The notes beneath the pieces were generated by a model, which made no database searches, had not been told where the DNA came from, and saw only the letters and a program-made list of their open reading frames with translations. Of a stretch of 64,000 nucleotides of DNA, positions 11,924 through 61,807 are shown in pieces. Source of the DNA: an uncultured Anaerolineae bacterium (lineage in GTDB: Bacteria; Chloroflexota; Anaerolineae; JAFGEY01); assembly GCA_964560475.1 (NCBI GenBank), contig CAZLMZ010000001.1, forward strand, positions 538 to 64,537, read 5' to 3'. The translations under genes and the position numbers were made by a program. The stretch's first letter is position 1; every line of letters begins with the position of its first letter.

Positions 11924-12523
11924 TTGGACGAAAGCGTCGATCTGTTCAGCGGCATCCTGACGGAGCGGCGGGGAGTGAACGTCGAGACACTGCGCTCGGT
12001 GCTCGATCTTGCGGTGGAGCTGGCCAGGGAGGGCCGCGAGGGGCGTCGGATCGGGACAATGTTCGTCGTCGCGGATGAGGAAGAGGTACTACAACGTTCG
12101 CGCTGCCTGATTCTCGACCCGCTGTGGCACCATCCGGTCGAGCGGCGACGGCTCACGGACCACAACCTGCGCGAAACCTTGAAAGAACTGGCGCAGTTGG
12201 ACGGGGCGTTCGTCATCTCGAACGAGGGGGTGGCGCTCTCGGCAACGCGCTATATCAATGCCTCTTCAGAGGGGATCGACCTGCCGCTCGGGCTGGGTGG
12301 CCGGCACATGGCGGCAGCGTCGATCACGTACGAGACGAACGCCGTTGCTGTCGTCGTCTCTGCGAGTTCGATCGTCCGTGTATTTGACGATGGCCAGCTC
12401 ATCGCCGAGATCATCCCGGAGATCTGGTTCCTGCGGCGCTATGGCGTGGCAGACAGGACCGTTCGTCCCGAGGGAGATGGGGAACAGATTGCCGTGTTCC
12501 ATCGCGGCGAGGGAGAACGCTGA
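11924..12523 (+). CDS. standalone DAC (diadenylate cyclase, DisA_N/CdaA-like) domain protein with an atypical RHM in place of RHR
   Basis: DAC landmarks align: GTMFVVAD (like GALIVV), DGAFVISNEG (the DGA motif) and LGGRHMAAASITYETNAVAVVVS (like LGTRHRAA...ALxIVVSEE). It has no TM segments and no HhH domain. It lies 40 nt downstream of ndvB on the same strand. Confidence 0.55.
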   Translation: MDESVDLFSGILTERRGVNVETLRSVLDLAVELAREGREGRRIGTMFVVADEEEVLQRSRCLILDPLWHHPVERRRLTDHNLRETLKELAQLDGAFVISNEGVALSATRYINASSEGIDLPLGLGGRHMAAASITYETNAVAVVVSASSIVRVFDDGQLIAEIIPEIWFLRRYGVADRTVRPEGDGEQIAVFHRGEGER

Positions 12524-12590: not shown

Positions 12591-12626
12591 CCAACCCGAT
12601 CCTAACTCTGTCCACCAAAGTCAACC
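12591..12626 (+). repeat. 36-nt conserved intergenic motif, copy A (upstream of osmC)
   Basis: CCAACCCGATCCTAACTCTGTCCACCAAAGTCAACC. Copy B at 23414-23449 is 31/36 identical. Confidence 0.6.
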
Positions 12627-12743
12627 ACAGCTCAAACGCAGCCCATCAGTTTGGATCGATGAGCGATGCTATGATAGAGGAAAGTGGCAGTGGCGTCATA
12701 GAGGTGGTCTCGGTGGCGCGCTGCTCGTTCGAGAAGGATGGAC

Positions 12744-13187
12744 ATGATGGCAGAGATCAAGCGCAAAGGCCAGGCGATCTGGTCCGGTGACAAGAGGGGA
12801 AGCGGCACGGTCAGCACCGAGAGCGAGGTGTTGGACAGCACGCGATATACCTTCAAGACGCGGTTCGGTGACCAGCCGGGAACGAACCCAGAAGAGCTGA
12901 TTGCAGCGGCCCATGCGGGGTGCTTTAGCATGGCGCTCGCCGCCACCGCAAGCGACAAGGGCTATACGCCGCGCTATATCAAGACTGTGGCTACCTGTAC
13001 ACTCGTGCCCCTGGATGGAGGCGGGTACAAGATCGCCAAGATGGACCTCGATGTGAGCGCGAAGGTGCTCGATATCGACGAGGAAACCTTCCAGGAGCTC
13101 GTGGAAGAAGCCGACCAGGGGTGTCCTGTATCCAACCTGCTACGTCCTGGCTTGGAGATCACGCTAAAGGCCTCTCTGGCCGAGTAG
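12744..13187 (+). CDS. osmC: OsmC/Ohr family peroxiredoxin (osmotically inducible protein C-like)
   Basis: OsmC fold signatures (AAAHAGCFSMALAA ... DQGCPVSNLL, two conserved Cys). An AAGGA RBS sits 5 nt before the third in-frame ATG. Confidence 0.85.
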   Translation: MMAEIKRKGQAIWSGDKRGSGTVSTESEVLDSTRYTFKTRFGDQPGTNPEELIAAAHAGCFSMALAATASDKGYTPRYIKTVATCTLVPLDGGGYKIAKMDLDVSAKVLDIDEETFQELVEEADQGCPVSNLLRPGLEITLKASLAE

Positions 13188-13226
13188 AGTCCCACTGCAA
13201 GCTGGAAGGGACTACGAGGAGCGAAC

Positions 13227-14486
13227 ATGGAAACGTACGAATATGTCATCATCGGCGGCGGCATGGCCGGAGGAAAGGCCTGCGAAGGAATCCGCAAAGT
13301 GGATGAGCGCGGGCACGTTGTCCTGATCACGGACGAGGCCCACCGGCCTTACGAGCGTCCACCTCTCTCCAAGGAGTACATGGTGGGGGAAAAGGGCCTG
13401 AGCCGCGTCTACCTGCGGCCCGAGAGCTATTATCCGGAGCACGACGTAGAGGTGTGGACCGGCGTGCGGGCAACTGAGCTGAGCCCAACCTCGCACGTGG
13501 TCACGTTGGACAGTGGGGAGCAGATCCGCTACAACAAGCTGCTGCTAGCGACGGGCGGACGTGCGAAGCGACTGCCTCTGCCAGGGAACGGCCTGCCCGG
13601 TGTGTTCACCCTACGGACGATCGAGGACTCGGATGCGATCAAGGAAGCAGCAGAGACGGCCGAGCGCGCCCTGGTCCTGGGCGGGAGCTTTATTGGTTCG
13701 GAGGTCGCTTCCTCACTGACCCAACTGGGCGTCGAGGTAACGATGGTCTTTCCTGACAGGCGATTGCTCGAGCGGGTCGTACCTGAGGAGTTGAGTGCGT
13801 TTCTGCACCGTATGTACAAGGACCGGGGAGTGCGGATCATTCCTGAGACCACAGCAGAGAAGCTGAACGGGAGTGCCAAGGTCGCAGACGCGCAGCTCGA
13901 CAATGGGGAAACGCTCTCCGTCGATATGGTCGTCATGGGCGTCGGTATCAACCTGAACACTCAACTGGCACGAGATGCAGGACTGGAGCTCACGAAGGAG
14001 GGTGCGGTAGCTGTAGACCAATACCTGCGGACGAGCGACCACGACATCTATGCGGCCGGAGATATCGCGGCCTGGCCCAGCATGACCTTTCGCGAGGCTA
14101 CACTCTCCGGCGGGCCCAAGCGTCTGCGCGTGGAGCACTGGGACGTGGCGCGCAGCCAGGGGTTGCGTGCAGGCGGCAACATGGCAGGCGACCAGGCGCC
14201 CTATACAACGCTGCCCTACTTTTTCTCGGACCTGTTCGAGTTCAGCTTTGAGGCGTGGGGCGATCTGAGCGCGTGGGACACGACCGTCTTGCGCGGCTGC
14301 CTGGAGCGTGGAAGCTTTGCCTACTTTTACTTTCGTGAGACGCGACTGGTGGGCGTGCTTGCCGTCGGACGGCCGGACGAGGAGCGTAAACCCATGCAGG
14401 AACTGGTGCGTCTGGGCCCGCAGCACGAGAAGGTGGCGGAAGCGCTCAGGACAGAAGAAACCAGCTTGAGCAAGCTCATTACATAG
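13227..14486 (+). CDS. FAD/NAD(P)-dependent pyridine nucleotide-disulfide oxidoreductase (ferredoxin/rubredoxin reductase-like)
   Basis: An N-terminal FAD fold (YVIIGGGMAGG), a second Rossmann motif (LVLGGSFIGSEVASSL) and an AAGD motif. RBS GAGGAG. Confidence 0.8.
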   Translation: METYEYVIIGGGMAGGKACEGIRKVDERGHVVLITDEAHRPYERPPLSKEYMVGEKGLSRVYLRPESYYPEHDVEVWTGVRATELSPTSHVVTLDSGEQIRYNKLLLATGGRAKRLPLPGNGLPGVFTLRTIEDSDAIKEAAETAERALVLGGSFIGSEVASSLTQLGVEVTMVFPDRRLLERVVPEELSAFLHRMYKDRGVRIIPETTAEKLNGSAKVADAQLDNGETLSVDMVVMGVGINLNTQLARDAGLELTKEGAVAVDQYLRTSDHDIYAAGDIAAWPSMTFREATLSGGPKRLRVEHWDVARSQGLRAGGNMAGDQAPYTTLPYFFSDLFEFSFEAWGDLSAWDTTVLRGCLERGSFAYFYFRETRLVGVLAVGRPDEERKPMQELVRLGPQHEKVAEALRTEETSLSKLIT

Positions 14487-14733
14487 TGCAGGGCGGCCAG
14501 GCGGACCTGGAGCGAGGCGCTCTATGTGAGACAGGCAGGCGCGAGAGCAGTCAGCTACTATGCCCGCAGTGGCGATGTCGTCACGTTGGCCCTCGTTCGT
14601 GACGGTCAGCAGATAGAATCTCCCGCCAAACTGGAGGCTCGTCCGGCAGGTCAGCCTGGCTAGCTACACTTTCGCCCCAACGGGGCGTGGCCCCAGCCCG
14701 CAGCGGGTCGGGGCCACGTTTCGCCTTGTGGGC

Positions 14734-14762
14734 TTGGCGCCTGATGCAGATGGTAGTATAAT
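14734..14762 (+). promoter_or_regulatory. sigma70-type promoter candidate (TTGGCG-17-TATAAT) for the response regulator gene
   Basis: A perfect TATAAT at 14757-14762, a TTGGCG -35 and a 17-nt spacer, about 110 nt upstream of the ATG at 14874. Confidence 0.4.
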
Positions 14763-14873
14763 CGCGCCAACTAGGACCCTTGTTGCAGAGCGTACTGTAG
14801 ACCAAGTGCTGCAGCGGGGTCGTGTAACATCCGCGTTGGCTCTCCCGAGCCAGCGTGGGCAGGAGGAGAAGGT

Positions 14874-15593
14874 ATGAGCGGAATACTGCGCACGTTGGTC
14901 GTGGACGACGAGGAACGGATCCGCTTCTTCCTGCAGGAGACCCTGCAGCGGTCAGGACACGTTGTGACGACAGCCTCGAATGGAGAGGAGGCGCTGGAGC
15001 GGCTGCAGGAGACCTCGTTCGATCTCGTGATGCTTGACTTGATGCTGGGTGGGCGGATCGACGGTCAGCGTGTCCTCGAAGCGATCCGCTGGCGTTGGCC
15101 CGGTACGATCGTGATCATCCTGACTGCACATGGGTCGCTCGAGTCTGCCGTATCGGCGATCCAGGAAGGCGTGGATGGATACTTGCTCAAGCCTGTCCGG
15201 CCCGACGATATTCGCCGAGCTGTGGGAGAGGCGGTCGAGCGACGCCAGATGTTGGTCGAAGCAGAGCAGGATGGGGACTCGGGTCACATACTAAAGCGAG
15301 GCCCATTTGCGGTCGATCTTCAGAGCCGCCAGGTGACCTATGGTGAGAAGACAGTGGATCTCACTCCGAGCGAGTTCAAGCTTTTGGTCCACATGATGCA
15401 GAACGCGCGCGAGGCGATCTCACCGCCCGAGTTGGTACAAGCGGTACGCCAGTACAAGCCTGAATATCTGCAGGAAGCACGCCAGATCATCAAGTGGTAT
15501 GTTCATCGGCTGCGCCGTAAGGTGGAGCCAGATCCTTCGAACCCGAGGCATATCCTGAATGTCCGTGGCGTCGGCTATATGTTCGAGCCATAA
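14874..15593 (+). CDS. OmpR-family two-component response regulator (REC plus winged-helix), orphan
   Basis: A receiver domain (VVDDE...DLVMLDLMLGG...K) and a C-terminal trans_reg_C domain (LTPSEFKLL...VRGVGY). No histidine kinase is adjacent. Confidence 0.85.
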   Translation: MSGILRTLVVDDEERIRFFLQETLQRSGHVVTTASNGEEALERLQETSFDLVMLDLMLGGRIDGQRVLEAIRWRWPGTIVIILTAHGSLESAVSAIQEGVDGYLLKPVRPDDIRRAVGEAVERRQMLVEAEQDGDSGHILKRGPFAVDLQSRQVTYGEKTVDLTPSEFKLLVHMMQNAREAISPPELVQAVRQYKPEYLQEARQIIKWYVHRLRRKVEPDPSNPRHILNVRGVGYMFEP

Positions 15594-15623
15594 CGAGCCC
15601 GAATCGGCTTTCCACGATACTAG

Positions 15624-15666
15624 AGCGAGGCCCGCCCAGTCCAGACTGGGCAGGCCTCGCTTTGCT
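15624..15666 (+). terminator. rho-independent terminator after the response regulator gene
   Basis: A 16-bp GC-rich stem (GCGAGGCCCGCCCAGT / ACTGGGCAGGCCTCGC, one mismatch) followed by TTTGCTC. Confidence 0.6.
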
Positions 15667-15918
15667 CATCTGCTAGCCTGCTCCCGCACTCGGTATGTTG
15701 CTTCTGTCTGACGACATCACATACGAATGTCTCCTCCACGTGCAGTGCCCAACGAAAATCCAACCTAGTCAACCGGATCCGAAGGCAGCGCAAACCAACT
15801 CCATCGGTTGCGCGGATGCCAGTCTGCTACAATGGGGGTTGCACACGCGGTTTGGCGTGTTGTGTCCGGCACGCGTGGTCGTTGCCGTCTTGATACAGAC
15901 AGGAAAACCCACGGCTAC

Positions 15919-16872
15919 ATGGAGTATAAAGACTATTATGCGATCCTCGGCGTGAGCCGAGACGCAGACCCAAAGGAGATCCGGAGCGCGTATCGAAAGC
16001 TTGCGCGCCAGTACCATCCCGACGTCAATCCCGGCGACAGCGAGGCAGAGGAACGGTTCAAGGAGATCAATGAAGCCTACGAGGTCTTGTCGGACCCGGA
16101 AAAACGGGAAAAGTACGACCGACTCGGCTCGGAATGGCGTCGTTACCAGCAGGCCGGAGGTCAGCCCGGTGGCTTTGACTGGGATCAATGGCGATCTCAG
16201 CAAGCAGGCCCAGGCGGGCAGCGGGTGCACGTACGTTACGGTACCCCGGAGGATCTCGAGGACCTGTTTGGAGGCGCGGCGCCCTTCTCTGACTTTTTTG
16301 CGCAGATGTTCGGTGGCAGGGGAGGTGCGCCAGCAGGTGGATTCCAGTATCAGGTACAACCAAGGCGTGGACGGGACGTCGAGCAGGAGGTGCAGATCGA
16401 TCTACTGGAGGCCTACAAGGGCACAACTCGTACCCTACAGATGGACGGGCGACGTCTGCGAGTCAAGATCCCCGCTGGAGCACATACGGGAACACGGGTC
16501 CGCATTCCGGGAGCGGGGGCATCGGGCAGTGCAGGTGGCGAGCAGGGCGACCTTTACTTGCACGTGATCGTGGCGCCTGATCCGCGGTTCGAGCGCGAGC
16601 ACGCGGATCTGCATACGGACGTGCGGGTGGATCTGTATACTGCCATCCTGGGCGGGAAGGTGCCAGTGCCTACCCTCGATGGCACGGTCCGACTGACGAT
16701 CCCGGAGGGCACGCAGAACGGCCAGGTTTTCCGTCTGAGAGGGAAGGGCATGCCACAGCTGCGGGATCCCGAACAGCACGGGGACCTGTATACTAGAGTG
16801 CAGGTCGAGTTGCCGACGGAACTGAGCGATCGGCAGCGTGAGCTGTTCGAGGAACTGCGGCGAGCGGTCTAG
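15919..16872 (+). CDS. cbpA: curved-DNA-binding DnaJ-class co-chaperone (J domain, no zinc finger; CbpA-like)
   Basis: A J domain (DYYAILGVSRDADPKEIRSAYRKLARQYHPDVN), a G/F-rich linker, and a C-terminal DnaJ_C domain without the CxxCxGxG repeats. Confidence 0.85.
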   Translation: MEYKDYYAILGVSRDADPKEIRSAYRKLARQYHPDVNPGDSEAEERFKEINEAYEVLSDPEKREKYDRLGSEWRRYQQAGGQPGGFDWDQWRSQQAGPGGQRVHVRYGTPEDLEDLFGGAAPFSDFFAQMFGGRGGAPAGGFQYQVQPRRGRDVEQEVQIDLLEAYKGTTRTLQMDGRRLRVKIPAGAHTGTRVRIPGAGASGSAGGEQGDLYLHVIVAPDPRFEREHADLHTDVRVDLYTAILGGKVPVPTLDGTVRLTIPEGTQNGQVFRLRGKGMPQLRDPEQHGDLYTRVQVELPTELSDRQRELFEELRRAV

Positions 16873-16890
16873 AGGGAGCCACCAGACAGG

Positions 16891-17166
16891 ATGGGCAGGC
16901 AGGTGGAGCAAATCGAGACCACGATTGCCATTGCTGCGCAGGAAAGCGGCCTCTCGGTGCGGGTGGTGCAGCACTGCATCCGCGAGGGCCTGGTGGGGAT
17001 GGATCTCGGTGAAGCAGAGCTGGAGCGCTTGCGCCGCATCCGCCGCCTACGCGCGCTGGGGATCAATCCACACGGCATCGAGATTATCCTGCGTATGAGG
17101 AGGCAGATCGAGCATCTGCAGGCGCAGTTGGCTCGCATGGAGCAGCAGTGCCCAACAGATGAGTAG
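16891..17166 (+). CDS. cbpM: MerR-family HTH protein, chaperone-modulator CbpM/HspR-like
   Basis: A 91-aa protein with a MerR-type HTH followed by a short coiled coil (LRRIRRLRALGINPHGIEIIL). It sits immediately downstream of cbpA, as in cbpA-cbpM and dnaJ-hspR arrangements. Confidence 0.6.
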   Translation: MGRQVEQIETTIAIAAQESGLSVRVVQHCIREGLVGMDLGEAELERLRRIRRLRALGINPHGIEIILRMRRQIEHLQAQLARMEQQCPTDE

Positions 17167-17190
17167 GCGCGGCGTCCAGAGACGCCGCGT
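17167..17190 (+). other. stable GC hairpin between cbpM and the Lon-like gene
   Basis: CGCGGCGTC-caga-GACGCCGCG: a 9-10 bp perfect stem with a 4-nt loop directly after the cbpM stop. No U-tract follows it. Confidence 0.5.
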
Positions 17191-17225
17191 GAGCCCGAAT
17201 CACTGAAAAACGGAGGTAAGCAGAA

Positions 17226-19658
17226 ATGGACAAGAGGCAGCTAGAGACATCCGAGTTATACCAGCGTTGTGACCCTGCGCTCTTTGACTTTGAGACGACG
17301 GCCGATCTCGAGGAGTTGGGGGAGGTCATCGGGCAGCCACGCGCTGTGGAAGCGCTGCACTTTGGGATGGGCATCGGAACGGATGGGTACAATATCTATG
17401 CGATGGGCCCAACGGGAACGCGCAAGCGCGAACTCGTACGGGAGCTGTTTCAGAGACGGGCCAAGTCAGAGCGCGTGCCTAATGACTGGTGCTACGTCAA
17501 CAACTTTGACCAGCCGGCCAAACCTCGCGCGATCGGCCTGCCGCCAGGCATGGGCACAGAGTTTCGCAACGACATGGAGCATGCAACCGAGGAGCTGAGC
17601 ACAGCGATGTCGGCTGCTTTCGAGAGCGAGGAATATCAGACGCGGCAGCAGTCGATCGCAGAAGAGTTTCAGGAGCGCCAGTCGGAGGCGCTCGAGGGAC
17701 TGCGAGAGCGCGTCGAAAAGGATGATCTGGCCCTGATTCGTACGCCAGGCGGCTTTGTGTTCGCCCCAGTCCACGACGGGAACGTGCTGTCTCCCGAAGA
17801 GATCCAGCAGTTGTCCGAGGAGAGACGGCGGGCATTGGAGCGGAAAGTCGAAGACTATGAGCAGGATCTGCAACGGATCTTCCGACAGGTCCCGACCTGG
17901 CAGCGCGAGCGACGAGAGCAGATCAACGAGCTGAACCGCGAGATGGCAGAGTTTGCGGTCGGCGGCATCATCGACGAGCTGAAGGAAAAGTACGCCGGGT
18001 TCCCGGACGTTCTCGACTACCTGCAAGCAGTGCAGAAGGATGTTATCGAGAACGCGCAGGCCTTTATGCCGTCAGAACAGCAACAACAGCAGATGCCGGG
18101 TTTCCTACAGATGCTGGCGGGAGGGGCGGGCGCACAGGATCAGCAGCCTATACTGAGACGTTACCGGGTGAACCTCGTGGTCGAGCACGGCGACGATCAG
18201 GGAGCGCCGGTGATCTACGAGGACAACCCGAGCTATCAGAACCTGATCGGGCGGGTGGAGCACCAGGCCCAAATGGGCGCGCTGATCACTGACTTTAACC
18301 TGATCAAGGGTGGAGCGCTGCACGAAGCAAATGGCGGATACCTGATTCTGGACGTGCAAAAGGTACTGACAGAGCCGTACGCCTGGGAAGGCCTGAAGCG
18401 GGCGCTGCAGTCGAAGGACCTGCGCATCGAGTCGTTGGGCCAGCGGCTGAGCCTGATCAGCACCGTGTCCCTGGAGCCGGAGCCGATCCCGCTGAACGTC
18501 AGGGTGGCCTTGGTTGGGGATGAGAGGCTGTATTACTTGCTGTGGCAGCTCGATCCCGACTTCCGCGAGCTGTTCAAGGTCGCTGCCGACTTTGCCGGGG
18601 AGATGGATCGCACCGATCAGAGCCAGCGCCAGTATGCGCAGTTGATCGCGGGCCTGGTGCGACAGCACGACCTTCGCCCCTTGGACCGTACCGGGGTCGC
18701 ACGCGTGATCGAGCAAAGCGCACGGATGGTGGGCGACACGGCCAAGTTGTCTACGCAGGTGCGCAGCGTGGCTGACCTGCTGCAGGAGGCCAGCTACTGG
18801 GCCGGTGAGGCGGATGCCGACGTCGTGTCGGCAGACCACGTACAAAAGGCAATCGATGCCCAGATCTTTCGCGCGGATCGGATCCGCGAGCGAATGCAGG
18901 AGCAGGTTTTGCGTGAGACCATCCTGATCTCGACAGAGGGGACCGAGGTGGGACAGGTGAACGGCCTGTCCGTCATTTCGCTCGGCAACTTTTGGTTCGG
19001 GCGACCGACCCGGATTACGGCGCAGACACGCCTGGGCAGTGGGCAGGTGGTCGACATCGAACGCGAAGTCGAGCTGGGCGGACCGCTTCACTCAAAGGGC
19101 GTGCTGATCCTCTCGGGCTTTATGGGGGCGCGATATGCAGAGGATACGCCGCTCTCGTTGTCGGCGAGCCTGGTGTTCGAGCAGTCCTACGGTGGCGTCG
19201 ATGGAGACAGCGCCTCGTCGGCAGAGCTGTACGCGCTGCTTTCTGCCATCTCGGAAGTGCCGATCAAGCAGTCCTACGCGGTCACAGGCTCTGTGAACCA
19301 GCATGGACGCGTGCAGGCGATCGGCGGCGTAAACGTCAAGATCGAGGGCTTTTTCGACGTGTGCAAGGCACGCGGGCTGACAGGAGAGCAAGGCGTCCTG
19401 ATCCCGTCGTCGAATGTGAAGCACCTCATGCTGCGGCAAGATGTGCGCGACGCAGTCGATGCCGGCGAGTTTCACATCTATGCGGTGGACACAATCGATC
19501 AGGGCATCGAGATCCTGACCGGTATGCCTGCTGGCGAGCCGGACGAGGAGGGGAGCTATCCTGAGGGCACGGTCAACTATCGGGTCAAGCAGCGCCTCGC
19601 AGAGCTGGCGGAAAAGCGCCGCAAGTACGGTGCGTCGGGCAAGGAAGGTGAAGCATGA
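17226..19658 (+). CDS. Lon-like protease, COG1067/LonC-type (AAA-like domain with degenerate P-loop plus S16 Ser-Lys protease domain)
   Basis: An 810-aa protein. The N-terminal AAA-like region has GPTGTRKR where a Walker A motif is expected. The C-terminal Lon proteolytic domain contains GDSASSAELYALLSAIS ... KIEGF. RBS ACGGAGGT. Confidence 0.75.
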   Translation: MDKRQLETSELYQRCDPALFDFETTADLEELGEVIGQPRAVEALHFGMGIGTDGYNIYAMGPTGTRKRELVRELFQRRAKSERVPNDWCYVNNFDQPAKPRAIGLPPGMGTEFRNDMEHATEELSTAMSAAFESEEYQTRQQSIAEEFQERQSEALEGLRERVEKDDLALIRTPGGFVFAPVHDGNVLSPEEIQQLSEERRRALERKVEDYEQDLQRIFRQVPTWQRERREQINELNREMAEFAVGGIIDELKEKYAGFPDVLDYLQAVQKDVIENAQAFMPSEQQQQQMPGFLQMLAGGAGAQDQQPILRRYRVNLVVEHGDDQGAPVIYEDNPSYQNLIGRVEHQAQMGALITDFNLIKGGALHEANGGYLILDVQKVLTEPYAWEGLKRALQSKDLRIESLGQRLSLISTVSLEPEPIPLNVRVALVGDERLYYLLWQLDPDFRELFKVAADFAGEMDRTDQSQRQYAQLIAGLVRQHDLRPLDRTGVARVIEQSARMVGDTAKLSTQVRSVADLLQEASYWAGEADADVVSADHVQKAIDAQIFRADRIRERMQEQVLRETILISTEGTEVGQVNGLSVISLGNFWFGRPTRITAQTRLGSGQVVDIEREVELGGPLHSKGVLILSGFMGARYAEDTPLSLSASLVFEQSYGGVDGDSASSAELYALLSAISEVPIKQSYAVTGSVNQHGRVQAIGGVNVKIEGFFDVCKARGLTGEQGVLIPSSNVKHLMLRQDVRDAVDAGEFHIYAVDTIDQGIEILTGMPAGEPDEEGSYPEGTVNYRVKQRLAELAEKRRKYGASGKEGEA

Positions 19659-20506
19659 GCAGCGAGGAGGGAGAAGTGCGGATCCGGCGTATTCTCGTCG
19701 CTCTGGATGCGTCCACGCATAGCCGCGCAGCACTGGCAGCGGCGGCGGACTTGGCTGGACGCTTTCATGCCGAGCTGCTCGGCATGTTCGTAGAGGACGT
19801 GAACCTGCTCCGACTGGCAGAGCTGCCGTTCGCACGCGAGGTTTTCATCTACTCGGCGCGGCGCCGCGAGCTCAGTACACGCGAGATGGAGCGGCAGCTA
19901 CACGCCCAGGCACGCCGCGCGCGCGAGCTGCTGCGCGCAGAGGCAGAGCGTGCAGAGCTGGAATGGTCGTTCGAGGTGGCACGGGGGCGGATCACCGCTG
20001 AACTGCTACGCGCTGCGTCCGAAGCAGACATGATCATCCTGGGACGGGCTGGTTGGTCGCTCACGCAGGCGCGACGGCTCGGATCGACTGCGCGCGGTGT
20101 GGCAGTGCAGGCGCCCTCCATGGCCCTTCTGCTCCAAGAGGGAGGCTGCTTGGGGCCGCCGGTGATGGTCGTGTACGATGGGTCGGAGATCGGGGCGCGT
20201 GCACTCGAAACGGCGCTCGGCTTGAGTGAGGACGCGGGCGACATACTGACCGTAATCTTGGCGGACGGCCACGAGGCGCTGCCACGCCTGCGGGAGGAAG
20301 TGAACCAGCATCTGCGGGGTGCGGAGCAGGAGGTCGAGCTGCGATACGTGCCTTTGAGCGCATCGAACGTGCAGCGGCTCGCTCACATGGTGCGGATGGA
20401 GGGCTGCGGCACGCTGGTGTTGCCAGCGCGGAGCCGGCTGCTCCACAAAGATATGCTTCTCGACCTGCTGGACGAAACGGAGATCCCTGTCTTGCTGGTG
20501 CGGTAA
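19655..20506 (+). CDS. tandem USP-domain protein
   Basis: RRILVALDASTHSRAAL... and VMVVYDGSEIGARAL... The ATG overlaps the Lon-like stop (ATGA). Confidence 0.7.
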   Translation: MSSEEGEVRIRRILVALDASTHSRAALAAAADLAGRFHAELLGMFVEDVNLLRLAELPFAREVFIYSARRRELSTREMERQLHAQARRARELLRAEAERAELEWSFEVARGRITAELLRAASEADMIILGRAGWSLTQARRLGSTARGVAVQAPSMALLLQEGGCLGPPVMVVYDGSEIGARALETALGLSEDAGDILTVILADGHEALPRLREEVNQHLRGAEQEVELRYVPLSASNVQRLAHMVRMEGCGTLVLPARSRLLHKDMLLDLLDETEIPVLLVR

Positions 20507-20575
20507 GGGGATCCCCCCGTGCCTGATGTATGCTTGCCGTGCGGTGCGGACACGATCGGCTGAGAGGAGGCTGCA

Positions 20576-21781
20576 GTGGACCTGGATGTGATCGAGGCGT
20601 TGGTAGAGCCTGCGGATACCAAGATCGTTCTGCTAGTGATGGACGGGTTGGGTGGACTGGCCGGGGCAGAGAGTGGCAAGACGGCGCTAGAGGCGGCGCG
20701 CACGCCGCACCTCGACAAACTCGCGGCCCAGGGAATCTGCGGGCTGCACGAGTCCGTCCGGGCGGGGATCACGCCGGGCAGCGGCCCTGCGCATCTGGCG
20801 CTGTTTGGCTACGATCCGCTCCGCTACCAGGTGGGAAGGGGCGTACTGGCCGCACTGGGGATCGGCTTTGACCTGCAGCAAGGGGACGTAGCAGCGCGTG
20901 GGAACTTTTGCACGGTCGACGAGGAAGGACGCATCGCGGACCGTCGAGCCGGCCGGATCCCGACGTCCGAGAACGAGGAGCTGTGTGGGCTGCTGCGCCA
21001 GATCGAGCTACCTGACGTGGAGGTGTTCGTCGAGACGGTCAAGGAGTATCGCCTGCTCCTGGTGCTGCGCGGAGAGGGTCTGTCCGGTGCGATCGAGGAC
21101 ACGGACCCACAGGAAGTAGGCGAAAAGCCGCTGGATCCTGAACCCCGCACTACGGAGGCACAGCACACGGCCGACCTGGTCCGCGAGTTTGTGCGACAGG
21201 CGGGGGAGATCCTTTCTGGCAGGGAACCGGCGAACATGGTCTTGCTGCGCGGCTTTTCCAAGCGGCCATCGTGGCCACGCTTCCCGGATGTCTTTGGGCT
21301 CCGGGCGGGTGCCGTGGCGGCCTACCCAATGTACCGCGGCGTGGCAAAGTTGGTGGGTATGGACGTGCTCGAGAGCGGGTCAGAGCTGGAGGAAGAGTTC
21401 GCGACGGTCGAGCGGCATTGGGAAGGGTACGACTTTTACTTCCTGCATGCCAAGCACATGGACAGTGCAGGGGAAGACGGTAACATGGACGAGAAGGTGG
21501 CCCGGATCGAGGAGGTGGATGCACTCGTGCCGCGCCTCCTCGATCTGGAACCTGACGTGTTGGTAGTCACGGGCGATCACTCGACGCCGGTCCGCATGCG
21601 CTATCATAGCTGGCACCCCGTCCCCACCCTCCTGTGGTCGGAGTACTGCCGCAGAGACGACGTGTCGACGTTCGGAGAAACGGCCTGCTTACACGGCGGG
21701 CTCGGCCCCCGGTTCCCGGCGACGGATCTGATGCCACTGGCACTGGCGCACGCGAGGCGCCTGCGAAAGTTCGGCGCGTAG
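20576..21781 (+). CDS. apgM: 2,3-bisphosphoglycerate-independent phosphoglycerate mutase, archaeal type (ApgM, COG3635)
   Basis: VLLVMDGLGG ... RTPHLDKLA ... metal-binding Asp/His motifs across ~400 aa. GTG start with a GAGGAGG RBS. Confidence 0.85.
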   Translation: MDLDVIEALVEPADTKIVLLVMDGLGGLAGAESGKTALEAARTPHLDKLAAQGICGLHESVRAGITPGSGPAHLALFGYDPLRYQVGRGVLAALGIGFDLQQGDVAARGNFCTVDEEGRIADRRAGRIPTSENEELCGLLRQIELPDVEVFVETVKEYRLLLVLRGEGLSGAIEDTDPQEVGEKPLDPEPRTTEAQHTADLVREFVRQAGEILSGREPANMVLLRGFSKRPSWPRFPDVFGLRAGAVAAYPMYRGVAKLVGMDVLESGSELEEEFATVERHWEGYDFYFLHAKHMDSAGEDGNMDEKVARIEEVDALVPRLLDLEPDVLVVTGDHSTPVRMRYHSWHPVPTLLWSEYCRRDDVSTFGETACLHGGLGPRFPATDLMPLALAHARRLRKFGA

Positions 21782-21811
21782 ATAGGGAAGCTCCCGGAGG
21801 AGGAATATGCT

Positions 21812-23359
21812 GTGAAGCCGAGCGATCGCAAGACGGCAGAAGGAATCCTGTTCACGGACGAATATCAGCTCACCATGGCGCAGTTGTACTATCGCCTGGG
21901 TCTCCACGAACGGATGGCGCAGTTCGATCACTTCTTCAGAAGCTACCCCGACTATGGGGCACACCAGGCGGGGTACTGCATCAACGCGGGCATGGAATGG
22001 CTGCTCAACTGGATGCAGGAAGCACGCTTCCGCGCCACAGACCTCGCCTACCTGCGGGCACAGACGGGGCAGAACGGCGAGCGGATCTTTGGTGACGATT
22101 TCCTAAGGTGGCTGAAGCGAACCGATCCCTGGGCGGGGATGTCGATGTGGGCAATCGCAGAGGGGCGGGTCGTGCATCCGAGTGTCCCACTGACAGTGGT
22201 GCAGGGACCGTTGGCTATGGCACAGATCCTGGAGACGTCGTTGCTCAACCAGCTAAACTACCAGACCCTGATCGCGACCAAGGCGGCCAGGATCCGTGAC
22301 AGCGGGCGGGGTAGGCTGCTTCTCGAGTTTGGCCTGCGACGCGCACAAGGCCGGGGAGCCAACGCCGGGGCTCGCGCAGCACTGATCGGGGGAGCGGACT
22401 TTACCTCGAATGTAGGCGTTTCTCACGTATTGGGGTACCCACCCAAGGGCACACACGCACACAGCATGGTGCAGGTGTTCATGGCCTTGGGCGAGGGTGA
22501 ACTTGCAGCATTTCGTGCCTATGCGGATGTGTACCCGGACAACTGCTTACTGCTGGTCGACACGATCGACACCCTCCAAAGTGGGATTCCGAACGCGATC
22601 AAGGTCTTTGAGGAGCTACGGCGAAAGGGACACCAGCCTGTGGGCGTCCGTCTCGACTCGGGGGATCTGGCCTATCTGGCCGTGCAAGCGGCCAAAATGC
22701 TGGATGATGCCGGCTTTACAGAGACATCGATCGTGCTCTCGAACCAACTGGACGAGCTGGTGATCCTGCAGGTCATCGCGCAGATCCAGGAAGAGGCGCC
22801 GCGATACGGGGTTGACGCCGATAGTCTGATCGATCGTCTCGTGTATGGTGTCGGGACACGGCTGATCACCTCAGAGGGAGATGCTGCTCTGGATGGGGTG
22901 TACAAGCTCGTGGCGGTGCAAGAGGGGAACGAGTGGACGCCGGCCATCAAGATCTCGGAGAACCCGGAAAAGATTCCGAATCCCGGGAACAAGCGTGTGT
23001 GGCGGATCTACGATCGGCGGGGCCAAGCTACCGCGGACCTGATGACACTCCAGGACGAGGATCCGCGAGAGATGGAGACAATCGTGCTCCGACATCCCAG
23101 CGTGAGGCAGAAGCAACGGACACTGTCGCGCGAGGATGTCTCGGAGATTGAGCCGCTCCTGGAGGGAATACTCGACGGTGGCGAGATGGCTCATGAGCCA
23201 CCTCCGATCGAAGAGATGCGCGAGCGGCGCAAAGCTGACCTCAGCCGACTCGATCCGGGCGTGAAGCGGATCATGAATCCGCACATCTACCACGTATCAT
23301 TGAGCGAGAAACTGTGGAATCTGAAGAAGGAACTGGTCGAGGCCGCAAGGGCGCGCTAG
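21812..23359 (+). CDS. pncB: nicotinate phosphoribosyltransferase
   Basis: [15 protein letters not shown]..., a 515-aa long-form NAPRTase. GTG start with a GGAGGAGG RBS. Confidence 0.85.
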
Positions 23360-23413
23360 CAGATGGTGGTCTCGGCCAAGGGGTTGTTGGCTGCCTGTAC
23401 GCCTGTGCGCGGA

Positions 23414-23449
23414 CCAACCCGATCCTAACGCTGCTCTCCAAAGCCAACC
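23414..23449 (+). repeat. 36-nt conserved intergenic motif, copy B (upstream of the PRC-barrel/BON gene)
   Basis: CCAACCCGATCCTAACGCTGCTCTCCAAAGCCAACC. Confidence 0.6.
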
Positions 23450-23532
23450 GGTACCACAACGATCCCCAGCATGTGTGTTCCCTCGCCGATGGTATCATTC
23501 AAGTAGAGATGAGTCTATCAAGGAGGTAAATC

Positions 23533-24363
23533 ATGGCAGAGCACGACCTGAATATCGGAGCAACGGTGCACTGCGAGGATGGCATCTGCGGGCGGGTGGC
23601 CAAAGTAGTGGTTGACGTGCACTCGGAGCGAATCACCGACGTGGTCGTAGCCAGGCGTCTTCCGTTCTCGGCAGATCGCGTGGTCCCCATTGACGCAGTG
23701 GAGCGTACGAACGAGGATGAGGTATATCTCTCGCTATCGGCAGAGGAACTGGATGCGCATCCCGAGTACCGAGAGGTCGAATACACACAGCCATCAGCCG
23801 GTGTCTATGAAAGTGGCGGCGTACGTTGCTATAACAACACTTATACTTATGCGTGTGACCTGCCGGTGGTACCAAGGGTCCGCCACGAGACGCATCCTGG
23901 CGTGGATGCAGACCGGGCCGTCGTCGGGCGTGGCACGCGCGTGCTGAATGCACAGGGCGAGGTGGCGCGCGTGGATCACGTGCTTATAGATCCCGAAAGC
24001 GACAAGATCACGCACCTGGTGCTGCGACGGGGTCTGGTTCCCAGGTACCCGATCCTTCCTATAGAAGAGGTGGACGAGTTCGGCGATGAGGTGGTGACGG
24101 TGAACCTGACCGAGGAAGCGATCGTAGCGCTGCCACGCTACCAACGCCGCCGGAGCCAGGATCTCGTGGCTGAACTGCGAGACCGCTATGCCAAGTCTTC
24201 GCGCGAGTTCGACCGGGTGGAGATCTCTGCCGAGGGGGGCATCATCCGGCTTGGTGGATCGGTATCTGAGGCAAAGAGCAAGCGGCACGCCGAGGCGATC
24301 GCGCGCTCGGTGCCTGGCGTGATCGACGTCGAGAACCAGATCGAGGTCGACGCCTCGGACTAG
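23533..24363 (+). CDS. PRC-barrel (x2) plus C-terminal BON domain protein (OsmY-like stress protein)
   Basis: PRC-barrel segments (GATVHCEDGICGRVAKVVVD; GTRVLNAQGEVARVDHVLID) and a BON domain (IISAEGGIIRLGGSVSEAKSKRHAEAIARSVPGVIDVENQIEV). A strong AAGGAGG RBS. Confidence 0.7.
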   Translation: MAEHDLNIGATVHCEDGICGRVAKVVVDVHSERITDVVVARRLPFSADRVVPIDAVERTNEDEVYLSLSAEELDAHPEYREVEYTQPSAGVYESGGVRCYNNTYTYACDLPVVPRVRHETHPGVDADRAVVGRGTRVLNAQGEVARVDHVLIDPESDKITHLVLRRGLVPRYPILPIEEVDEFGDEVVTVNLTEEAIVALPRYQRRRSQDLVAELRDRYAKSSREFDRVEISAEGGIIRLGGSVSEAKSKRHAEAIARSVPGVIDVENQIEVDASD

Positions 24364-49303: not shown

Positions 49304-50838
49304 TGTCCCTCACTCCTTCGCTTTTGGCGCCGTTCGCCGGTCATCATCAGACCTACTGCCTCACGGTCCTCGGTCTGCATCTCGCCTGCGATCTGGCCCT
49401 CATAGATCACGGCGACCCGGTCACTGAGCGCAAACAGCTCGTCGAGCTCTTCCGAGATGAGAAGGATGGCTGCACCGCTCTCCCGCTGCGCCAGCAACAG
49501 GCGCTGGACGTCCTCGATAGCACCCACATCTAGGCCTCGCGTTGGCTGGACGGCGACCAGCAGCCGAGGTTGGGTCGCGATCTCGCGGGCCAGGATCAGC
49601 CGCTGCAAGTTGCCGCCCGAGAGCAGTCGCGCTGGTACGTCGATCGAGGGAGCGACAATGTCGTACGCCTGCTTCAGATCTCCTGCCCAGGCGTTTGCCG
49701 CTGCCTGGCTGATCGCCCAGCCCTGGGCGATGGGCTCCCGGCGGTAGTGCTTCATGATCAGGTTGTCTGTTAGGCTCAGGTTGGGTGCACTACCCACCTC
49801 GGTCCGGTCTTCGGGCACGTGCGAAACGCCACGCTGGATCGCGGTGAGCGTGCGGCCGTTCTCGATCTTCTGTCCCTGGATCATGATGCGACCAGAGGTG
49901 GCCGGGCGCAGTCCCGTGATCACTTCCGCCAGCTCCCGCTGGCCATTACCAGCGATGCCAGCAAGGCCAAGGACTTCGCCCGCCCTGACCTGGAGAGACA
50001 AACCGCGCAGCGCAGGCAAGCCCTTGTCGTTGTCTGCGTGAATGTCGTCGACTGCGAGCACTACTTGACCGGGTTTCTGTGCGGCCTTTTCGACGCGGAA
50101 CAGGACCGACCGGCCCACCATCAGACGTGCCAGCTCTTCGGCACTCGTCGCATCCTTGTCGAGCCCTGCCGCGGTGACGCGGCCCTTGCGCAAGACGGTA
50201 ACCCGATCAGCGACCTGCATCACCTCGCGCAGTTTGTGGCTGATAAAGATGACCGATTTTCCCTCTCGGGTCATCGAGCGGAGGGTGCGAAACAGCTCCT
50301 CAATCTCCGGTGGGGCGAGAACGGCTGTCGGCTCATCCATGATCAGCACGTCGGTCCCACGGTAGAGCATCTTGAGGATCTCTACGCGCTGCTGTTCACC
50401 GACACAGAGCTGCCAGATCCGGGCCCTGGGATCCACGTGCAGCCCAAAGCGCTCGCCCAATCGAGCGACGCGTTGGTGGTAGGCGGCAAGCCGCAGGAAA
50501 AAACGAGGCTCATCGAGGCCGAGAAGGATGTTCTCGGTCACCGTCTGCGACTGTACGAGCATAAAGTGCTGGTGTACCATACCGATGCCCAGGTCGATCG
50601 CGTCCCGCGGGGATCGCAGGTCGGCACGATGCCCACAGACTGTGATCTGACCAGCGTCAGGGCGATACAGTCCAGCCAGGACGTTCATCAGCGTGCTCTT
50701 GCCTGCCCCGTTTTCGCCGAGCAGAGCATGGATTTCCCCGGCGTGGACGGTCAAGTCTACGTAGTCGACGGCGACCACCCCCGGGAAGCGCTTGACGATG
50801 CCCCGCATCTCGATGGCAGGACACAGTTCCCCTTGCAT
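49300..50838 (-). CDS. ABC transporter ATP-binding protein with duplicated ATPase domains (NupA/YufO-like)
   Basis: Two Walker A motifs (GENGAGKST; GIAGNGQRE-type) and two signature motifs. The start is placed at MQGELCPAIEMRGIVKRF with a GAAAGG RBS. Confidence 0.85.
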   Translation of the reverse strand: MQGELCPAIEMRGIVKRFPGVVAVDYVDLTVHAGEIHALLGENGAGKSTLMNVLAGLYRPDAGQITVCGHRADLRSPRDAIDLGIGMVHQHFMLVQSQTVTENILLGLDEPRFFLRLAAYHQRVARLGERFGLHVDPRARIWQLCVGEQQRVEILKMLYRGTDVLIMDEPTAVLAPPEIEELFRTLRSMTREGKSVIFISHKLREVMQVADRVTVLRKGRVTAAGLDKDATSAEELARLMVGRSVLFRVEKAAQKPGQVVLAVDDIHADNDKGLPALRGLSLQVRAGEVLGLAGIAGNGQRELAEVITGLRPATSGRIMIQGQKIENGRTLTAIQRGVSHVPEDRTEVGSAPNLSLTDNLIMKHYRREPIAQGWAISQAAANAWAGDLKQAYDIVAPSIDVPARLLSGGNLQRLILAREIATQPRLLVAVQPTRGLDVGAIEDVQRLLLAQRESGAAILLISEELDELFALSDRVAVIYEGQIAGEMQTEDREAVGLMMTGERRQKRRSEGQ

Positions 50839-55033: not shown

Positions 55034-56029
55034 ATGAGAGCCGAGCTGATCTATAACGCAAGAGCCGGCCCAATCGCAGTTCGCCACGAGATGGGGGATG
55101 TCCGGGATTACCTGGAGCACCGTGGCTGGAACACCACGATCCGAGAGACGCGGGCACCACTCGAGGCCACTCGACTGGCACGGGAGGCGGCAGAGCGGGG
55201 GATCGAAGTCGTCGTCGCTGTGGGGGGGGATGGCACGGTAAATGAGGTCGCCGCAGGTTTGATCGAGACAGATACAGCGCTGGGTGTCCTCCCTGTTGGG
55301 ACAACGAACGTCTGGGCACTGCAGATGCACATCCCGGCGTTGAATCCGGTCGGGGTGGACTCACAGTTCGCGCGGCTGACTTCTGACCTGGAGCAGCGGA
55401 TCGATCACAAGGTGCCACTGAGCCACTATCGCACCGTACTGCTCAATGCAGCTCACGTCCTGCTGCACGGCGAGGTGGTCTCGGTAGACGTCGGTGTGGC
55501 GAACGACCGGCACTTTTTGCTGTGGTGCGGTGTCGGGCTCGATGCCGCGGTCACAGAGAGCGTGCCCGCGGAACAGAAAAAGTCACTAGGCCCTCTGGCA
55601 TTCGTGGGGACGACGCTCAACAAGCTGCGCGATTACAAGAACGCCTCGGTCACACTCACCCTCGATGGAACGGTGAGACGCGTCGCCACGTCATTGATCG
55701 TGGCGAGCAACATCCAACTGTACGGCGGGATCCTGCCGCTCGGGGCACGGGCCTATGTGAACGATGGCAAGCTCGACGTATGTGTTTTTCACGGCGAGGG
55801 GATTCTACGCTACCTGCAGCACGTGTTCAAAGTTGCGGCGCGCACACACGTCGAGGATACGGAGATCGATTACTACCAGGCCCGGGAGGTGCATGTCGAA
55901 TCGAGCACGCCGCTCCCGGTGCACGTGGACGACGAGCCGTTCTCAGAAACCCCGGTCACCATCGGCGTGCGTCCACGCGCATTGCGGGCTATCGTGCCCC
56001 GGAACGTGCCAAGAGATCTATTCGTGTAG
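55034..56029 (+). CDS. diacylglycerol kinase catalytic-domain lipid kinase (YegS/DagK family)
   Basis: VVVAVGGDGTVNEV ... a DAGK_cat domain. Confidence 0.8.
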   Translation: MRAELIYNARAGPIAVRHEMGDVRDYLEHRGWNTTIRETRAPLEATRLAREAAERGIEVVVAVGGDGTVNEVAAGLIETDTALGVLPVGTTNVWALQMHIPALNPVGVDSQFARLTSDLEQRIDHKVPLSHYRTVLLNAAHVLLHGEVVSVDVGVANDRHFLLWCGVGLDAAVTESVPAEQKKSLGPLAFVGTTLNKLRDYKNASVTLTLDGTVRRVATSLIVASNIQLYGGILPLGARAYVNDGKLDVCVFHGEGILRYLQHVFKVAARTHVEDTEIDYYQAREVHVESSTPLPVHVDDEPFSETPVTIGVRPRALRAIVPRNVPRDLFV

Positions 56030-61525: not shown

Positions 61526-61601
61526 TGGCGCGCCCGGCGGGACTCGAACCCACAACCTTCGCTTTCGTAGAGCGGTGCTCTATCCATTGAGCCACGGGCG
61601 C
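61526..61601 (-). tRNA. tRNA-Arg (anticodon ACG), CCA encoded
   Basis: Cloverleaf folded by hand: 7-bp acceptor stem GCGCCCG/CGGGCGC, D-arm GCTC/GAGC, anticodon loop CU-ACG-AA, T-loop TTCGAGT, terminal CCA. Confidence 0.85.
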
Positions 61602-61615
61602 ACATTCGTTATCAG

Positions 61616-61705
61616 CGGGGAGGCAGGGATTCGAACCCTGGAAGGAGCTTTTGACCCCTTAACCGCTTAGCAGGCGGCCCCATTCGACCACTCTGGCACC
61701 TCCCC
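61616..61705 (-). tRNA. tRNA-Ser (anticodon GCU), type II with long variable arm, no encoded CCA
   Basis: Acceptor stem GGGGAGG/CCTCCCC, anticodon loop CU-GCU-AA, long variable arm, T-loop TTCGAAT. Confidence 0.85.
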
Positions 61706-61720
61706 TTGGCTGTTCTGCAG

Positions 61721-61807
61721 CGGAGGGAGAGGGATTCGAACCCCCGGTGACCTTGCGGCCACAACGGTTTTCAAGACCGCCGCCATCGTCCACTCGGCCA
61801 TCCCTCC
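61721..61807 (-). tRNA. tRNA-Ser (anticodon UGA), type II, no encoded CCA
   Basis: Acceptor stem GGAGGGA/TCCCTCC, anticodon loop CU-UGA-AA, long variable arm, T-loop TTCGAAT. Confidence 0.85.

Follow-up and report, generated by a model that had tools for sequence, protein, structure and literature searches.

The 64-kb stretch of Anaerolineae DNA analysed here (the window, meaning all 64,000 nt of it) contains a 36-nt repeat that is the distal two-thirds of a promoter module of about 85 bp. The module consists of five CCAAC-type boxes on the coding strand followed by an extended −10 element, TGnTAnnAT, and three copies are found in the window, upstream of osmC, a PRC-barrel/BON gene and cbpA. 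It is a real and conserved cis-regulatory module of a well-known type, the response-regulator repeat array, in a poorly studied class of bacteria; the protein that binds it is probably an OmpR/PhoB-family regulator encoded in the same region. On balance we favour the view that the module is an activator-dependent promoter, its phased array bound by this neighbouring regulator, and that it marks a clade-wide stress and proteostasis regulon. The two 36-mers are as follows.

12591-12626, + strand: 36-mer copy 1, CCAACCCGATCCTAACTCTGTCCACCAAAGTCAACC, equal to boxes 1-4 of the osmC module
23414-23449, + strand: 36-mer copy 2, CCAACCCGATCCTAACGCTGCTCTCCAAAGCCAACC, equal to boxes 1-4 of the PRC/BON module

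An earlier sequence-only reading had reported these two copies in the same orientation with 31/36 identity, and both the sequence and a shuffle test bear this out: the degenerate 36-mer matches the window twice, against 0.00 matches expected from 100 dinucleotide shuffles. A position weight matrix built from four instances of the 36-mer scored 62.5 and 60.9 bits at the two copies and no better than −2.1 elsewhere in the 64 kb. The 16-mer core gave two exact matches and one with two mismatches, at 49769-49784(-), which sits within an ABC-ATPase coding sequence and was dismissed as chance. The −10-like hexamers proposed behind the copies are in place (TATGAT at 12670, TATCAT at 23493), exactly 43 nt from the end of the 36-mer in both cases, and both are preceded by TGn, making them extended −10 elements. 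A distance of about 110 nt from motif to gene had been given for both; counted from the motif end to the start codon, it holds for osmC (111 nt, ATG at 12738) and is 83 nt for the BON gene (ATG at 23533). The peptide NPILTL, said to be common to spurious small open reading frames (ORFs) in the two regions, was also reproduced.

The repeat itself thus stood, and the unit was redrawn from 36 nt to about 85 bp. A "weaker echo" mentioned before cbpA proved to be a real and significant third copy: a profile made from osmC-type promoters only matched the window at just two other places, with E = 8.5e-6 at the BON copy and E = 4e-4 at the cbpA copy, the latter full-length and in register. Profiles built with one class left out likewise recovered the remaining classes as their sole window matches. 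The module features are these.

12591-12675, + strand: module 1, osmC promoter (nhmmer E = 3.5e-15, anchored alignment), with boxes CCAACC at 12591, CCTAAC at 12601, TCCACC at 12611, TCAACC at 12621 and TCAAAC at 12632
12643-12654, + strand: −35-region element of module 1, CCATCAGTTTGG
12667-12675, + strand: extended −10 of module 1, TGCTATGAT, with a predicted start site near 12682
23414-23498, + strand: module 2, PRC/BON promoter (nhmmer E = 2e-10), with boxes at 23414, 23424, 23434, 23444 and 23455
23490-23498, + strand: extended −10 of module 2, TGGTATCAT
15749-15833, + strand: module 3, cbpA promoter, the former echo (nhmmer E = 3e-14), with boxes CCAAC at 15749, CCAAC at 15760, CAACC at 15770 and CCAAC at 15795
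15801-15810, + strand: CCATCGGTTG of module 3
15825-15833, + strand: extended −10 of module 3, TGCTACAAT

The AAC cores of the boxes start at model positions 3, 14, 23, 33 and 45, giving spacings of 11, 9, 10 and 12 bp; with a mean of about 10.5 bp, the boxes lie on one face of the helix. Read in 10-nt steps the osmC copy runs CCAACC, CCTAAC, TCCACC, TCAACC, TCAAAC, CCCATC. This agrees with what an OmpR/PhoB-family array calls for, namely two or more short direct repeats (5-8 bp) that recur every 10-11 bp. In the family profile most of the information falls on the boxes and the −10, and its autocorrelation is maximal at lags 10-11. Measured from the predicted start site, the boxes occupy about −91 to −44. 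No TTGACA-like or other canonical −35 was found in the module promoters; most copies carry an inverted GGTTG at the −35 position, which is missing from module 2.

An ungapped alignment anchored on the −10 hexamer, covering the window's osmC, BON and cbpA promoters and their orthologs, gave a set of positions that are invariant in 10 sequences of three operon types. Counted from the hexamer, these are C.AAC at both −79 and −68, CC at −55, AAC at −35 and CCA.C at −27, followed by TG..A..AT. With the correct −10 anchor the osmC and BON modules, the best pair, are identical at 50/76 positions and the osmC and cbpA modules at 38/76, against a window-wide null of 19.2 +/- 3.9. From array to extended −10 the distance does not vary, either among the three window copies or in any of their orthologs. 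The weighted family consensus is CCAACccAAttCCAAC.tTgccAACCaAa.cCAac...agccCCAACC.a..cCAtCgGTTgggg......t.tt.TGcTAt.AT. Judged against it, the cbpA copy, CCAACGAAAATCCAAC, is the canonical form and the closest of the window copies, and the GATCCTAAC version, which the sequence-only reading had written as CCAACCCGATCCTAAC, is a lineage-specific variant. An idea that Dam/GATC methylation is involved was discarded: GATC occurs only in the variant of the window lineage, CCCGATCC, and the wider family has CCAAC-N6-CCAAC without GATC.

Conservation was examined in orthologous loci, all of them from uncultured organisms; proteins identical to those of the window occur only on short metagenome contigs. 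Module 1 is conserved in L013, L014-16, L017-18 and L019, module 2 in L001-L010, and module 3 in L013, L014-16 and L018, where it lies upstream of cbpA or an Hsp70 gene. At BON orthologs of 76% and 72% identity (L007-9 and L010) the 16-mer core is unchanged and the 43-nt spacing is kept, and at OsmC orthologs of 80-88% (L014-L019) the boxes and the exact 43-nt spacing are kept, with informative substitutions such as CAAACCCGATCCCAAC in L014 and CAAACCAGATCCTAAC in L019. The DNA 5′ of box 1 diverges in these BON and osmC loci. A different gene, encoding an HHH-domain protein, precedes osmC in the relatives, and the module still stays with osmC. All of these relatives that have both the osmC and the cbpA/Hsp70 modules carry an OmpR-family regulator gene between the two, as the window does. 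One 74% BON homolog (L011) has no intergenic region at all; the DNA comparison covered the BON homologs other than P0005 and P0006. A scan of 596 Gb of reference genomes for the exact 19-base core, CCAACCCGATCCTAACNCTG, came back empty, which places the source species outside the GTDB representatives; in Joint Genome Institute (JGI) metagenome contigs the core matched only a near-identical osmC locus (L013) and, by chance, a low-complexity contig (L012).

The family extends well beyond these orthologs. More distant loci were fetched through relatives of the regulator gene, one genome per species, and the profile was refined over three rounds, converging on 38 sites, each with E no higher than 5e-6, across 473 kb of DNA from related Anaerolineae. 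No site was found in 904 kb of control loci from Gemmatimonadota, Cyanobacteria and others (best E = 2.5). Matches are nearly always full length, second or third sites occur within about 7 kb, and the distance from array to −10 is near-constant over the 38 sites, with a few small indels. Below significance, the pattern CCAAC-N6-C(C/T)AAC ... TGnTAnnAT is still visible by eye in L038-L041. The genes behind the modules include receiver-only regulators (in many loci) and those for a PRC-barrel protein, dodecin, an M50-CBS protease, a LuxR-type regulator, DoxX, a KH protein and a Pyr_redox reductase. PRC/BON genes follow modules in the window, L007, L010, L024 and L104, M50-CBS genes in L036 and L104, and Pyr_redox genes in the window operon and L035; PRC/BON, M50-CBS and reductase genes therefore recur behind the module in different genomes. 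L104 was fetched by BON homology alone (42% identity), and its module (E = 3e-12) heads an operon running from the M50-CBS gene to the PRC/BON gene.

In the window the genes behind the modules are the following, with the flanking OsmC and PRC plus BON assignments of the sequence-only reading upheld.

12738-13187, + strand: osmC peroxiredoxin (Pfam, NCBIfam TIGR03562), first gene behind module 1
13227-14486, + strand: FAD/NAD(P) pyridine-nucleotide-disulphide reductase, second gene of the module 1 operon (12738-14486)
14686-14718: hairpin after the osmC-reductase operon
15919-16872, + strand: cbpA (DnaJ-type), behind module 3
16891-17166, + strand: 91-aa MerR/HspR-like protein (29 bits to the HspR model), after cbpA
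17226-19658, + strand: Lon-like protease of 810 aa (141 bits to a LonB-related model, below its cut-off)
23533-24363, + strand: PRC-barrel/BON protein, behind module 2

Judging by their spacing, the cbpA, MerR/HspR-like and Lon-like genes (15919-19658) probably form one operon. The sequence-only reading had described the gene set as osmotic and oxidative effectors; these are indeed stress genes, and across the family chaperones, proteases, reductases and signalling receivers join them. The ndvB gene, the DAC-like gene and the two universal stress protein (USP) genes of the window, which it had also drawn in, are without a module.

Divergent genes flank two of the sites (L025 at 91(-) and L035 at 7648(-)), and the regulator gene of the window has a canonical −35/−10 promoter of its own while the modules have no −35; for these reasons the evidence points to the module being a promoter and not a 3′ element. 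An RNA-level element was nonetheless weighed: the module as a terminator or other part of a 3′ untranslated region (3′-UTR), as a 3′-UTR-derived small RNA with a single-stranded CCAAC-rich region, or as a leader structure. In keeping with this, the upstream gene is co-directional at every window copy, at a gap of 54-155 nt (a DAC-domain gene before copy 1 and an NAPRTase gene before copy 2), and in about 13 of the 38 distant copies a stem of 10-16 bp can form between box 5 (CCCAACC) and an inverted GGTTGGG; a T-run comes after this stem, and its inner part shows compensatory changes (GCTG/CAGC, ACTG/CAGT, CACCT/AGGTG, CTAAC/GTTAG). Strong hairpins of this kind occur within modules at L020, L021, L022, L024, L028, L032, L036 and L037, and every one of them follows a co-directional gene, usually a regulator gene. 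The two copies between divergent genes, however, have nothing upstream to terminate and show only a short CAACC...GGTTG repeat without a T-run.

The window copies themselves lack such a hairpin. Segments of 101 nt round the three copies gave no significant fold on either strand (z-scores of −0.9 to +1.0), an intrinsic-terminator test of the same copies, looking for a G+C-rich hairpin and a T-run behind it, was negative (z of −1.0, −0.9 and +1.0, and no more than 2-3 T among the final 12 nt), and the osmC and BON orthologs all lack a significant hairpin (z −1.5 to +1.0) or T-run as well. At the Rfam gathering thresholds the sole matches of the window were three tRNAs, and six related loci had no match. 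(Three tRNA genes are clustered at 61529-61807 on the minus strand.) The window does have terminator-like hairpins, at 14686-14718 and 15624-15661, and both are outside the modules: the second directly follows the regulator gene, and the first is 1.0 kb upstream of module 3. The module also lies upstream of the predicted start site, and in an RNA model the invariant extended −10 at its fixed distance would have no role. An RNA-level function is accordingly very improbable, and with it the small structured RNA that the sequence-only reading had listed among its options. The hairpins of the distant copies are best read as terminators that belong to the upstream gene and overlap the promoter (−45 to −15) where space is short, and not as a function of the module. 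In L036 two modules stand in tandem directly after the regulator gene, at 10717-10788 and 10796-10880; the first copy has a terminator-like hairpin and the second a −10.

The same hairpins bear on a further possibility, that of a dispersed or mobile intergenic cassette, either REP/MITE-like (resembling repetitive extragenic palindromes or miniature inverted-repeat transposable elements) or a portable terminator-promoter, spread by duplication and free of any specific regulatory logic. Many loci have several copies per 20 kb, the L036 pair (10717, 10796) is in tandem, and a terminator-like hairpin with a T-run lies inside about 13/38 copies. Yet the window copies are all within 11 kb, with none in the remaining 53 kb; copies of the same genome share little beyond the boxes, as the 50/76 and 38/76 identities above show; their positions are orthologously conserved, without terminal inverted repeats or target duplications being seen; the exact 19-base core went unmatched in the reference genomes, and the same gene families recur downstream. 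Almost all copies have the start of a co-directional frame no more than about 230 nt away, or else at 600-1200 nt, past a gene-less stretch. A dispersed REP/MITE-like repeat was what the sequence-only reading had named as the finding that would speak against it. What was found is three copies in the 64 kb, each facing a downstream gene, at positions that orthologs keep, the copy densities being those of the 64-kb window and the fetched partial loci. We consider the cassette reading very improbable as well, if a shade less so than the RNA one.

The best reading of the promoters is that they are activator-dependent with a sigma-A-like extended −10. The sequence-only reading had left open an activator site, an alternative-sigma UP/−35 element and a small structured RNA; the activator site is favoured because of the phased direct repeats, the missing −35 and the linkage to a regulator gene in at least 18/24 genomes, and the other two options found no support. 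In the case of alternative sigma factors, which was judged by eye against standard consensus sequences, the −10 carries TG and resembles that of sigma-A, and no conserved −35/−10 pair stands at the spacing of extracytoplasmic function (ECF) factors or sigma-32. A sigma-32-like reading of CCCAT/CCCAG at −27 was rejected on spacing and on the invariant extended −10, as was an ECF-like reading of "CAAC...CGGTT", whose elements are 9 nt apart, not 16-17, in front of the same invariant −10.

The candidate activator and its promoter lie between modules 1 and 3.

14874-15593, + strand: OmpR/PhoB-family response regulator (receiver plus winged helix, Pfam), candidate binder of the boxes
14734-14762, + strand: the regulator's own promoter, TTGGCG-17-TATAAT, canonical sigma-70-type

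The CCAAC array is not present at the regulator's own promoter, which shows what an activator-independent promoter of this organism looks like. The phospho-acceptor residues of the regulator are intact (DD10-11, D55, T84, K106). Its best NCBIfam scores are 152 bits for RpaB (cut-off 330), 132 for MtrA (300) and 129 for OmpR (331); all being below the curated cut-offs, it is not an ortholog of any of the three. Its relatives in the PDB are RegX3, RpaA, MtrA and KdpE. We found 24 orthologs at 48-69% identity in loci of Anaerolineae/Chloroflexota metagenome-assembled genomes, after which identity drops to 38% or less (other OmpR-family proteins, other phyla), and in this search, with one genome per species, the regulator forms a distinct orthologous group confined to Anaerolineae metagenome-assembled genomes. 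Its recognition helix, EAR.IIKWY.HRLR.KVE, is conserved in 27/27 aligned sequences (the window, two close relatives and the 24 orthologs). A module stands directly 3′ of the regulator ortholog in 18/24 loci by profile and about 22/24 by eye (three or four extra), and the gene beyond this module varies between loci. A gene for a cytoplasmic PAS/GAF-HisKA-HATPase kinase lies upstream of the regulator ortholog in 10/10 loci tested.

The 27 regulator sequences also share a conserved segment, Y-x-P/C-E/D...EAR, right before the recognition helix; by eye, it looks longer than the loop that OmpR or PhoB has at this place.

In the mechanism that we favour, phosphorylated dimers of the regulator (14874-15593) would bind the boxes head-to-tail and cooperatively, in the manner of OmpR at ompF/ompC and of ArcA and PhoB at sites with multiple repeats, and the promoter-proximal protomer would replace the missing −35 contact and recruit RNA polymerase. 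The window modules would in this way switch on osmC and the reductase, the PRC/BON protein, and cbpA with the Lon-like protease. Its copies in related Anaerolineae would drive genes for PRC, the M50-CBS protease, the reductase, dodecin and receiver-only regulators, with the regulator presumably paired with the cytoplasmic PAS/GAF histidine kinase, and the whole would amount to a clade-wide stress and proteostasis regulon. The architecture of the module, its register to the extended −10, its conservation, the way it faces the genes behind it and the fact that it is linked to the regulator gene were all directly observed; that the boxes bind the tandem winged-helix domains of the regulator, and that it activates transcription from there, is what we infer.

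Several points weigh against this mechanism. Extended −10 promoters can fire without an activator, and the array could bind a repressor or some other factor. The inverted GGTTG box misfits a purely head-to-tail array, and the BON and cbpA copies have weak versions of boxes 3 and 4. The link between regulator and module, which we draw from gene neighbourhood, is confounded by sampling: the distant loci were fetched through the regulator gene, and modules near it were over-sampled. The regulator has no adjacent kinase in the window, where a search for a partner histidine kinase found none among the ORFs tested, and OsmC or BON homologs in three more distant Chloroflexota loci (L100, L101, L103) are without the module.

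These points leave some room for a regulated promoter that is read by another factor, be it a different activator or repressor encoded elsewhere or an alternative or group-2 sigma factor preferring such an extended −10 context. The neighbourhood-based and sampling-biased association would fit this too, as would the inverted GGTTG at −35 together with the C at −13 (TGCTA..., in the osmC and cbpA copies), which recall stress-sigma promoters, and there are candidate factors at hand, namely the MerR/HspR-like gene in the cbpA operon and a TetR gene that follows the BON gene. MerR, HspR and TetR, however, bind palindromes, not five phased direct repeats. The key positions of the sigma-A extended −10 are invariant (TG, A at 2, T at 6), and nothing is conserved at ECF or sigma-32 spacing, with 9 nt from "CAAC" to "CGGTT" and no more than 14-15 nt separating the TTG in GGTTG from the −10. 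Moreover, the module stays 3′ of the regulator gene though the next gene changes. We regard such another factor as unlikely, though far from negligible. The MerR/HspR-like gene (16891-17166), as a probable member of the cbpA operon, makes a second layer of heat-shock control possible there.

A more far-reaching version of the activator mechanism can be put forward tentatively, as rather speculative: a general-stress circuit of Anaerolineae, clade-wide and hitherto undescribed, in which the PAS/GAF kinase, the OmpR-type regulator and a receiver-only partner control dozens of promoters by way of a portable array, and in which the array can double as the upstream terminator, box 5 and its inverted copy forming the stem. 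If this were true, genes would join the regulon by insertion of one compact terminator-promoter cassette.

PhoB pho boxes, Streptomyces PhoP units and GlnR boxes are direct repeats with an 11-bp period that replace the −35 at activator-dependent promoters, and actinobacterial GlnR boxes, 5-nt xnAAC-type sites 6 nt apart, are formally like CCAAC-N6-CCAAC. The likeness to the module is architectural only, since consensus, regulators, signals and phyla differ. The half-sites of OmpR are of the GTTACA/GAAACA type. Known OmpR-family regulators use this very architecture (PMC3050692, PMC3798270). In E. coli and Yersinia, ompF and ompC have the OmpR sites F1-F2-F3 and C1-C2-C3, three tandem 20-bp sites of two 10-bp sub-elements each, to which OmpR-P binds in tandem upstream of a weak promoter, so that roughly 60 bp of phased half-sites end near −40 (PMC3050692). 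The module resembles these in this layout, in the Response_reg and Trans_reg_C domains of the regulator and in the connection to osmotic stress; it differs in that its boxes are CCAAC, five clear and one inverted instead of six, and in belonging to another phylum with a regulator that is no OmpR ortholog. E. coli ArcA sites have two to five direct repeats with 11-bp (or 22-bp) centre-to-centre spacing, near-helical as in the module, and the number and quality of repeats vary by promoter in both (PMC3798270). ArcA, however, is mostly a repressor, with sites overlapping promoters and an A/T-rich motif, whereas the module array lies upstream of a −10 without a −35, and the regulator is no ArcA ortholog either.

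The cyanobacterial RpaB/HLR1 system has a direct-repeat pair with a 10-bp period, its sites activate when centred about 50 nt upstream, and it serves stress acclimation (PMC6525291). RpaB is the best NCBIfam model for the window regulator (152 bits), and both have phased direct repeats; still, the two are not orthologs (cut-off 330), HLR1 is (G/T)TTACA(T/A)(T/A) with two repeats only, and the targets are unrelated. The regulons of sigma-S, sigma-B and EcfG are alike in gene content (OsmC, OsmY/BON, PRC-barrel, chaperones), but they are defined by distinctive −35/−10 elements, and the module has a housekeeping-like −10 with an upstream repeat array. Literature searches found no description of the motif, of a Chloroflexi regulon or of an Anaerolineae stress regulator-motif pair.

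Phased direct repeats for a winged-helix regulator are textbook, and the value of the module is as a resource for annotation and regulon prediction, with no conceptual advance. Anaerolineae are abundant and almost entirely uncultured; the module together with its candidate two-component system allows regulon prediction directly from metagenome-assembled genomes, and module and regulator make a concrete DNA-protein pair for work in vitro. The module also provides a functional hint for the poorly understood proteins behind it (PRC/BON, dodecin, M50-CBS and receiver-only regulators).

Some smaller features of module-bearing loci were noted. A gene-less stretch of 600-800 nt separates the module −10 from the receiver-only regulator gene in L028 (10852-11629), L027 (3550-4351), L064 (10883-11574) and L037 (10827-11439); it shows 72-78% DNA conservation among L027, L064 and L028, with no consistent reading frame and no Rfam match. 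It could represent a long leader, or else a non-coding RNA that is transcribed from the module and lacks annotation. An 11-mer, GGTGGTCTCGG, is shared by both motif-bearing intergenic regions of the window (12703-12713, 23365-23375); it was judged chance or compositional because it also occurs in coding sequence at 55474-55484 and is missing from the BON orthologs.

The DAC-domain protein upstream of osmC (11924-12523) scores best with the haloarchaeal DacZ diadenylate cyclase model (138 bits, cut-off 430), better than with the bacterial DisA or CdaA models. In the Lon-like protein (17226-19658) about 300 N-terminal residues are without an NCBIfam match. The predicted 85-nt cbpA leader (15834-15918) contains the inverted repeats GCACACGC...GCGTGTTG and begins GGGT(T)GCA in the window, L013, L014 and L018. 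The osmC leader (12690-12737) has a conserved stretch, GGTGGTCTC-N2-3-TGGCG-GC, common to L013, L014 and L017.

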